From: a virus
Lineage: Duplodnaviria; Heunggongvirae; Uroviricota; Caudoviricetes
IMG/VR virus record: IMGVR_UViG_2917403263_000002
Reading direction: 5' to 3' (one strand)
Length of the DNA: 4,434 nucleotides
Shown: piece by piece, positions 876 to 1,687 of the stretch
How the letters are laid out: each line of letters starts with the position of its first letter
Numbering within the stretch: position 1 is the stretch's first letter
Notes under the pieces: generated by a model
Database searches by the model: none
The model's input: only the letters and a program-made list of their open reading frames with translations
What the model was told of the DNA's origin: nothing
Program-made: the position numbers and the translations under genes

Positions 876-1010
876 GACGACTTATTGCCGCTCTGTTCCC
901 AGATATTTCGCCGCGACATTCGCGCATCGTCAGAACTGACACAGGCCGAAGCAGTGAAAGCTCTTGGATTCCTGAAACAGAAAGCCTCTGAACAGAAGGT
1001 GGCTGCATGA
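876..1010 (+). pseudogene. bet: 3' fragment of bet (Red beta single-strand annealing protein), about 44 C-terminal codons
   Basis: The plus frame ending at TGA 1008..1010 encodes ...[44 protein letters not shown], which matches the C-terminus of lambda Bet as I recall it. The stop overlaps the exo ATG as ATGA. In-frame sequence upstream of about 876 ([13 protein letters not shown]) no longer resembles Bet and is preceded by an in-frame TGA at 834..836, so there is no start or N-terminal body. Confidence 0.8.
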
Positions 1011-1687
1011 CACCGGACATTATCCTGCAGCGTACCGGGATCGACGTGAGAGCTGTCGAACAGGGAGATGATGCGTGGCACAAATTACGGCTCGGCGTCA
1101 TCACAGCTTCAGAAGTTCATAACGTAATAGCAAAACCCCGCTCCGGAAAAAAGTGGCCTGACATGAAAATGTCCTACTTCCACACCCTGCTTGCTGAGGT
1201 TTGCACCGGTGTGGCTCCGGAAGTTAACGCTAAAGCGCTGGCCTGGGGAAAACAGTACGAGAACGACGCCAGAGCCCTGTTTGAGTTCACTTCCGGCGTG
1301 AATGTTACTGAATCCCCGATCATCTATCGCGACGAAAGTATGCGTACCGCCTGCTCTCCAGATGGTTTATGCAGTGACGGCAACGGCCTTGAACTGAAAT
1401 GCCCGTTTACCTCCCGGGATTTCATGAAGTTCCGGCTCGGTGGTTTCGAGGCCATAAAGTCAGCTTACATGGCCCAGGTGCAGTACAGCATGTGGGTGAC
1501 GCGAAAAGATGCCTGGTACTTTGCCAACTATGACCCGCGTATGAAGCGTGAAGGCCTGCATTATGTCGTGATTGAGCGGGATGAAAAGTACATGGCGAGT
1601 TTTGACGAGATCGTGCCGGAGTTCATCGAAAAAATGGACGAGGCACTGGCTGAAATTGGTTTTGTATTTGGGGAGCAATGGCGATGA
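1007..1687 (+). CDS. exo: Lambda exonuclease (Red alpha, 5'-3' dsDNA exonuclease), complete, 226 aa
   Basis: The translation ([40 protein letters not shown]...[11 protein letters not shown]) is near-identical to lambda Exo as I recall it, and the length of 226 aa matches. The start is coupled to the bet remnant stop by an ATGA overlap. Confidence 0.95.

Follow-up and report, generated by a model that had tools for sequence, protein, structure and literature searches.

Does an intact reading frame in an otherwise wrecked prophage tell us that the gene has been kept by selection? This question is raised by a 4,434-bp stretch of DNA from an IMG/VR virus record (hereafter the window, meaning this stretch at its full length), in which a complete exo gene of the lambda type stands beside a mere stub of its partner gene bet and which the initial annotation had explained by a recent deletion or by selection. 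The answer that we reach is a plain one, since both the gene and this sort of defective prophage are already known: the window very probably represents the complete remnant of a phage-21-like prophage at icd with an ordinary decay scar, in which exo owes its integrity to the lack of any change after the deletion. The argument depends on the following features of the window:

Positions 1–585, minus strand: intact tfa, for tail fibre assembly, with a product of 194 aa (Pfam Caudo_TAP, E = 1.3e-44).
Positions 585–846, minus strand: 3'-terminal fragment of stf, covering its final 87 codons and in frame up to the stop (99% identity to full-length stf; Phage_fiber repeat match).
Positions 843–875, minus strand: stf island, 33 bp from mid-stf (100% match within the full-length stf of phage PhiR42_1).
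Positions 875–1010, plus strand: bet stub, Bet residues 218–261 (homology to lambda bet; tblastn yields residues 218–261 only).
Positions 1007–1687, plus strand: exo, complete gene of a lambda-type 5'-3' dsDNA exonuclease, 226 aa, ATG to TGA (list of open reading frames).
Positions 1678–1866, plus strand: homologue of lambda orf60a (DUF1317), intact, positioned as in lambda (Pfam, E = 1.8e-40).
Positions 1748–1770: terminator-like hairpin (consensus scan).
Positions 1839–2030, plus strand: homologue of lambda orf63 (DUF1382), intact (Pfam, E = 1.2e-31).
Positions 2041–2322, plus strand: small orf61-like ORF, 93 aa (gene call on the source contig; synteny with lambda and phage 21 orf61).
Positions 2343–2361, plus strand: terminator-like hairpin followed by a T run (consensus scan only).
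Positions 2421–2639, plus strand: TraR/DksA-type zinc-finger ORF, intact (Pfam zf-dskA_traR, E = 5.9e-9).
Positions 2687–2926, plus strand: DUF4222 ORF, intact (Pfam, E = 1.4e-19), holding the sole private base of the right arm, at 2877.
Positions 3066–3302, plus strand: xis, excisionase (Pfam Exc; 78/78 aa identical to phage 21 Xis).
Positions 3292–4434, plus strand: int, tyrosine integrase of the phage-21/e14 type (376/380 aa identical to phage 21 Int).

None of the eight ORFs of the right arm is disrupted, and neither is tfa, which is 93% identical to lambda orf-194 and is the distal end of the prophage remnant. Searches with lambda Gam, Kil, CIII and N gave no tblastn match in the 12.7-kb source locus. 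Most of what the initial annotation had read from the letters holds up against these data: exo is full length at exactly the coordinates given, with 226 codons that align end to end; Bet is reduced to a C-terminal stub of residues 218–261; the upstream DNA is antisense tail fibre sequence, consisting of tfa and two stf fragments; gam is gone, as the blank tblastn search of the source locus confirms; and the native pL/N region is lost, with neither a match to N nor a detectable substitute promoter. Several smaller observations belong to the same layout. The orf61-like ORF at 2041–2322 has no Pfam match, a mechanically called TTG ORF at 858–1010 runs over the bet stub, and an AT-rich inverted repeat of 16 pairs lies at 2934–2972, between the DUF4222 ORF and xis. 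The Rfam search of the window returned nothing besides a match to IS009 (RF02111; 44–242, minus strand; 226.8 bits, with the gathering score at 117), which falls wholly within the tfa coding sequence. Classification of the window as a satellite or PICI-like mobile element was considered and rejected, as it has neither replication or packaging genes nor a second att site.

The product encoded by exo matches the Pfam YqaJ family (PF09588) with E = 1.4e-30 and 106.9 bits (cut-off 22) over positions 2–149 of the 150 in the profile, and aligns without gaps over 226/226 residues with the sequences of the lambda exonuclease structures 1AVQ, 3SLP and 6M9K (E ~1e-155; phmmer against PDB sequences), of which the first two are lambda Exo and the third is lambda Exo bound to the Bet C-terminal domain. 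It is identical to lambda Exo at 224 of 226 residues, the sole differences being T90A and N168D, and to phage 21 Exo at 223 of 226. Residues W24, R28, L78, D119, E129, K131 and Q157 are all present; D119, E129 and K131 are catalytic in the lambda Exo structures, and R28 belongs to the 5'-phosphate pocket. Inactivating changes at catalytic residues, named in the initial annotation as the finding that would count against it, are therefore absent. Judging from the 99% identity to the crystallised enzyme, the protein would be a processive 5'-3' dsDNA exonuclease acting as a toroidal trimer and should be active if made. One of the two differences from lambda Exo concerns the partner interface: T90A sits on the helix-E ridge that binds Bet (PMC6393309). 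Relaxed constraint at this interface following the loss of Bet was considered and rejected as its origin: codon 90 encodes Ala in 98 viral contigs and Thr in at least 120 (IMG/VR), and carriers of Ala90 almost all possess a full bet, so that T90A is a common natural allele and no product of drift in the remnant.

On the other side of the start codon of exo, decay is evident. The bet stub differs from lambda Bet by one change (A255S), its stop codon (TGA, 1008–1010) overlaps the exo ATG in lambda-like fashion and it carries the exo Shine-Dalgarno sequence. Residues 1–217 of Bet are missing, leaving neither the annealase domain nor helix 1 of the C-terminal domain; in the Exo-Bet co-crystal the ordered C-terminal domain is a three-helix bundle starting from Thr195 (PMC6393309), and the stub, which has no helix 1, is unlikely to fold. 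The full-length Bet beside exo that a functional Red module requires is thus lacking. Upstream of the stub, identity to full-length stf genes (99%) breaks off at window position 846, and the 33 bp that follow derive from the middle of stf: this island encodes 11 residues in the stf frame, is out of frame with the stf 3' fragment in the window, lies about 750 bp from the 3' fragment in the stf gene of PhiR42_1 and is also matched in 1,121 E. coli genomes. The scar accordingly reads stf 3' end, a GCTG overlap, the 33-bp stf island, a 1-nt T overlap and bet codon 218. As the island is placed between the stf 3' fragment and bet, the scar comprises at least two illegitimate joints with microhomology. 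Chance resemblance at the junction of stf and bet can be dismissed because both flanks match their phage counterparts at 93–99% identity. The exact stf-bet junction was not found in 5,426 complete E. coli genomes, in GTDB species representatives or in IMG/VR.

Such a junction might also be produced in silico, if tfa/stf and bet/exo repeats of different prophages were misjoined during assembly. These genes are indeed repetitive, with tfa, stf and exo found in a median of 4 places per E. coli genome, and the left flank of the remnant is unexpected for an icd locus. However, one NCBI assembly and two Logan assemblies, built from separate sequencing runs, all show the same 4,434 bp together with their flanks, and the joints are unique sequences with overlaps of 1–4 nt, not long repeats, which leaves a misassembly extremely unlikely.

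The window is matched without a difference by a 412-kb contig (L007) from NCBI assembly GCA_005781135.1 and by the two Logan (SRA) assemblies (runs SRR8835201 and SRR6148330). An exact look-up of the Exo protein led to four contigs, each of which contains the entire window, letter for letter, between the same flanks. The known copies of the remnant do not differ from one another at all (100% identity). On L007, icd starts 113 bp past the int stop, as is found upon integration at the 3' end of icd, and to the right of int follow icd, rluE, nudJ and mnmA. The arm at 875–4434 is colinear with, and 98.8% identical to, complete phages such as Lambda_2E9 and 1H12; upstream of the matching arm these phages have an entire bet, gam and kil, together with their immunity region and the genes for replication. 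Given the prophage order int...exo bet gam...N cI...Q...A...J stf tfa, a single colinear deletion from bet to stf accounts for the loss of genes. No displaced icd' copy (attR) was detected within 5 kb to the left on L007; since only one att site and no second icd' copy are present, the remnant should not be able to excise.

The surroundings of the remnant offer some further observations. To the left of window position 1 (L007 3966–4994), tfa is followed by a 122-bp spacer, an adh_short gene and then ymjC/pgrR; the spacer contains a 9-bp inverted repeat, pattern scans with the spacer sequence gave no match and the adh_short gene beside it was not found in the 5,426 complete E. coli genomes. In other E. 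coli the ymjC-pgrR region lies ~185 kb from icd, and this distance, taken with the lack of an icd' copy, implies a further rearrangement at the left end of the remnant. To the right of window position 4434 (L007 9429–9500), the DNA after the int stop holds three GTTTTGGGGAA-like repeats in tandem, which match the P1–P3 arm-type sites (consensus YYTTCCCCAAAA) annotated for the attP of phage 21. The right chromosomal flank (icd-rluE-nudJ-mnmA, L007 9429–12681) shows 94–97% identity to two E. coli genomes and the left flank 98%; the host may belong to a divergent Escherichia lineage.

With the anatomy in place, we turn to whether the integrity of exo carries information about selection. Two pattern scans inside exo yielded 218 IMG/VR loci; exo is full length in 177 of these and intact in 176 of the 177, and from them 125 distinct, unambiguous nucleotide alleles served as the comparison set. 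Against these natural alleles the exo gene of the window shows 0 private nucleotides: the nearest allele is 5 nt away (3 synonymous and 2 non-synonymous differences), and all states of the window are seen elsewhere. Throughout the arm at 875–4434 (3.56 kb) there is a single private base, at 2877, position 874 being the joint itself. A stop codon arises from 4.3% of single substitutions in exo, and given at most one substitution over 3.5 kb, one would expect exo to be intact. Nothing sets exo apart in this respect, the rest of the right arm and tfa being equally intact.

The comparison with lambda exo proposed in the initial annotation was carried out and gave 9 synonymous and 2 non-synonymous changes, a pattern reflecting phage ancestry since none of these changes is private to the remnant. 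Likewise, dN/dS (Nei-Gojobori) is 0.065 for the window against all alleles and 0.088 among the natural alleles. As a selection test on the remnant the ratio was rejected, since no change is private to the remnant and the ratio records phage history: the low dN/dS of exo was inherited from working phages. With zero private substitutions and identical copies in four contigs, selection on exo is not measurable. Between the two alternatives of the initial annotation, the evidence supports a recent deletion, with no private base in exo, intact ORFs and identical copies, and gives no support to selection on exo, given a dN/dS like that of complete phages and the existence of parallel remnants with damaged exo (see below). 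We infer from this that the deletion is recent, with the qualification that the absence of private mutations leaves it undated, as recombination shuffles exo alleles among prophages. The window exemplifies why an intact ORF in a wrecked prophage can speak for selection only where its lineage is old enough to have accumulated changes, and exo has none.

This shuffling is the basis of an alternative in which exo was maintained passively: the deletion would possibly be old, and gene conversion by lambdoid phages, whether newly arriving or resident in the same host, would have overwritten the arm repeatedly with functional alleles, keeping exo intact without any selection on the remnant. In accordance with this, the arm is mosaic when compared with its best phage match (24 differences in exo versus 5 in the 2.5 kb at 1931–4434), the exo variants are all standing variation, one and the same gam-bet junction (type B, see below) occurs on haplotypes 16 nt apart in other prophages, and donors are plentiful, lambda-type bet and exo being present together in 3,305 of the 5,426 complete E. 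coli genomes (~61%). The mosaicism could, however, be older than the deletion, lambdoid phages are mosaic anyway and the remnant lineage bears no sign of a conversion event. We consider this alternative very improbable, and it departs from our main explanation solely in the age of the deletion and not in the nature of the object.

A more consequential alternative is domestication, in which exo, alone or together with the small downstream genes, would be under purifying selection and the nuclease used by the host: for the processing of double-strand breaks, for pairing with the lambda-type Bet of another prophage or for attack on incoming linear DNA. The ORF, the Shine-Dalgarno sequence and the catalytic residues of exo are all intact, as domestication would require, but the remnant lineage is devoid of variation and hence of any measurable selection signal, exo dN/dS is that of complete phages and the remnant has been seen on four contigs only. 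Decidedly unlikely on this evidence, domestication was also weighed against other defective prophages at the same site and against the prospects of exo for expression and partnership.

A search with the whole window revealed further small remnants at icd in which tfa and an exo-to-int part form the two sides; the sample of independent icd remnants is small and comprises three types. In the second type (L002, genome GDSC2227PM), homology to exo begins at codon 10 and the frame is broken near codon 132, RefSeq marking the gene as frameshifted; in the third (L003, genome Z1323CEC0012 and six further genomes, 7 in all), exo likewise begins at codon 10 and is fused to O/P gene fragments. Both share with the window the icd site, the int-xis-...-exo arm, the opposite tfa and a deleted prophage middle. 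They differ in where the deletion ends, at exo nt 24–27 as opposed to bet nt 654 in the window, and in having kept an icd' copy and McrBC-like cargo, whereas no icd' copy is found within 5 kb on L007. That the exo-to-int arm has been kept in three remnant types at icd would fit domestication; exo itself, however, has not stayed intact across independent remnants, as it is frameshifted in L002 and without codons 1–9 in both L002 and L003. This damage in parallel remnants argues against a general need of the host for exo. With regard to the cargo, both remnants encode McrC and an AAA ATPase beside tfa (L002 2568–5641, L003 2567–5640), which resemble a defence system; L002 additionally has a macro-domain gene between tfa and stf' (6594–7484), and in L003 a DGQHR-domain gene takes the place of orf63/orf61 (7847–8911).

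Whether exo of the window could be expressed was assessed by consensus scans. No sigma-70-like site was found on the plus strand of 1–1007, and this lack of a promoter upstream of exo weighs against domestication. The 122-bp spacer left of the window has two promoter-like plus-strand matches (L007 4869–4916), a number at chance frequency, and no plus-strand terminator-like site was found before 1748; given these two observations, read-through transcription into exo may occur. Without N, the hairpin at 2343–2361 would stop transcripts entering from the exo side. Gam and pL/N-driven expression, both needed by a functional Red module, are absent. Because pL/N is lost, no promoter is recognisable and the annealase partner is gone, exo most likely persists as a passenger that is silent or expressed weakly and has its decay still ahead, and it probably has no function in the remnant.

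The initial annotation had further suggested that the orphan exonuclease could cooperate in trans with a Bet or RecT from another prophage. As PMC11611040 summarises Muyrers 2000, RecT is able to bind RecE and unable to bind lambda Exo; therefore, only a lambda-type Bet could assist in trans, so that the suggestion survives for Bet and falls for RecT. For domestication this has two sides: a suitable partner could well be present, considering the ~61% of complete E. coli genomes with lambda-type bet and exo, but on the same account RecT cannot stand in for Bet, and prophages with Bet carry their own exo. Indeed, bet and exo occur together in 163 of 169 informative viral loci, and a co-resident prophage with a lambda-type Bet would normally bring its own exo too. 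'Help in trans' for orphan phage exonucleases is thereby limited, as the annealase must be cognate. A separate observation concerns a locus (L127 9225–10142) at which the gene upstream of a lambda-type exo (92% identity) encodes an annealase of 305 aa with an N-terminal part unlike Bet and a C-terminus resembling the Bet C-terminal domain (…LDKTWDADLLPLC…GFLRQKAAA); from its sequence, this annealase appears to be mosaic at the level of domains, with the Exo-binding end retained.

The loss of bet next to a surviving exo is not confined to the window. A full exo accompanies a truncated bet in 5 of the 169 informative viral loci, and 4 of the 5 truncations start at bet nt 590/591. Targeted patterns retrieved five independent deletions with different left partners, all of which resume at bet nt 590/591, T/TAACGATGAAACC (the endpoint sequence is also given as T/TAACGATG): on the left they are joined to gam at nt ~53, to gam at nt ~307 (which fuses Gam and Bet in frame), to DNA from the nin side, to Q in antisense and, in one case, to a further sequence. 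The loci concerned are L153, L230, L202, L232, L233, L076, L177 and L234 of IMG/VR, and E. coli APEC O78 has the same endpoint (NC_020163.1 1532202–1532494). The endpoint falls where the ordered, Exo-binding C-terminal domain of Bet begins, and each of the deletions leaves an intact 60-aa ORF for this domain together with an intact exo. A second recurrent endpoint lies within exo: three different left partners resume at exo nt 24–27 (TACCGGGATC; TACCGGG), equivalent to window 1030–1034, which leaves exo without codons 1–9. They are found in L002 (about 8035), in L133 (about 9537) and, as one and the same case, in L003 (about 7041) and L178 (about 8650). The right-hand haplotypes of the recurrent junctions are as diverse as wild-type alleles, from one of which each differs by 0–1 nt, and a single gam-bet junction type (type B) occurs on two haplotypes 16 nt apart that each equal a different wild-type allele. 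An IS element behind the bet nt 590 endpoint was also considered and rejected: no bet interrupted at this site was found in IMG/VR, and four matches proved to be GAT-to-AAT SNPs.

Such recurrence could be read to mean that deletions stripping the Bet annealase domain, and in most cases gam, and sparing exo are a favoured outcome, and that the window belongs to a recurrent class with Exo only, in which the exonuclease is kept for a function of host or prophage. The cause might then be that Red/Gam is costly to lysogens or sensed by defence systems; the classical Spi- escape from P2 Old is a precedent for the sensing of Red/Gam by a defence system. Alternatively, a site-specific break in the red region might be responsible. 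The recurrence of exo-sparing deletions, at 5/169 viral loci in an unbiased sample, also counts in favour of domestication. The endpoint of the window itself, bet nt 654, differs from the recurrent sites, and membership of the window in a favoured class of this kind appears very unlikely to us. The identical endpoints in the red region of unrelated prophages nevertheless deserve attention in their own right, as they point to an unrecognised hot spot of breakage or recombination or to strong selection, which would act on how lambdoid prophages lose their recombination genes.

The explanation that we prefer, an ordinary decay scar in a phage-21-like prophage, would involve the following course of events. 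A lambdoid prophage of this type would have integrated at icd, and an illegitimate deletion with at least two joints would have fused the stf 3' end to bet codon 218, removing the head, tail, lysis, replication and immunity genes along with N/pL, gam and the annealase domain of Bet. The window retains tfa-stf' at its left end and, to the right of the scar, bet'-exo-orf60a-orf63-orf61-traR-DUF4222-xis-int. Since then exo would have remained unchanged, either as the deletion is recent or as the arm has been kept uniform by recombination with the many copies of lambda-type exo that E. coli prophages carry.

Comparison with known systems places the window among the lambdoid elements. With lambda Red (exo-bet-gam, pL operon) it shares an Exo identical at 224/226 residues, the overlap of the bet stop with the exo start and the gene order orf60a, orf63, orf61; in contrast to lambda Red, it is without Bet 1–217, gam, kil, cIII, N, nutL and pL. 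Phage 21 and e14 are lambdoid elements that integrate into icd, and e14, too, has kept both ends of a prophage, one with int and one with the tail-fibre genes. The window has in common with phage 21 the type of its Int, Xis and Exo, the int gene abutting icd and the arm-type repeats after the int stop, but only 4.4 kb are left in it and a second icd' copy is not located within 5 kb. Finally, the exoD of the cryptic prophage DLP12 in E. coli K-12 is a truncated pseudogene of a lambda-type exo beside int/xis: both cases represent a lambda-type exo next to int/xis in a decayed lambdoid prophage, with the difference that exo of the window is complete.
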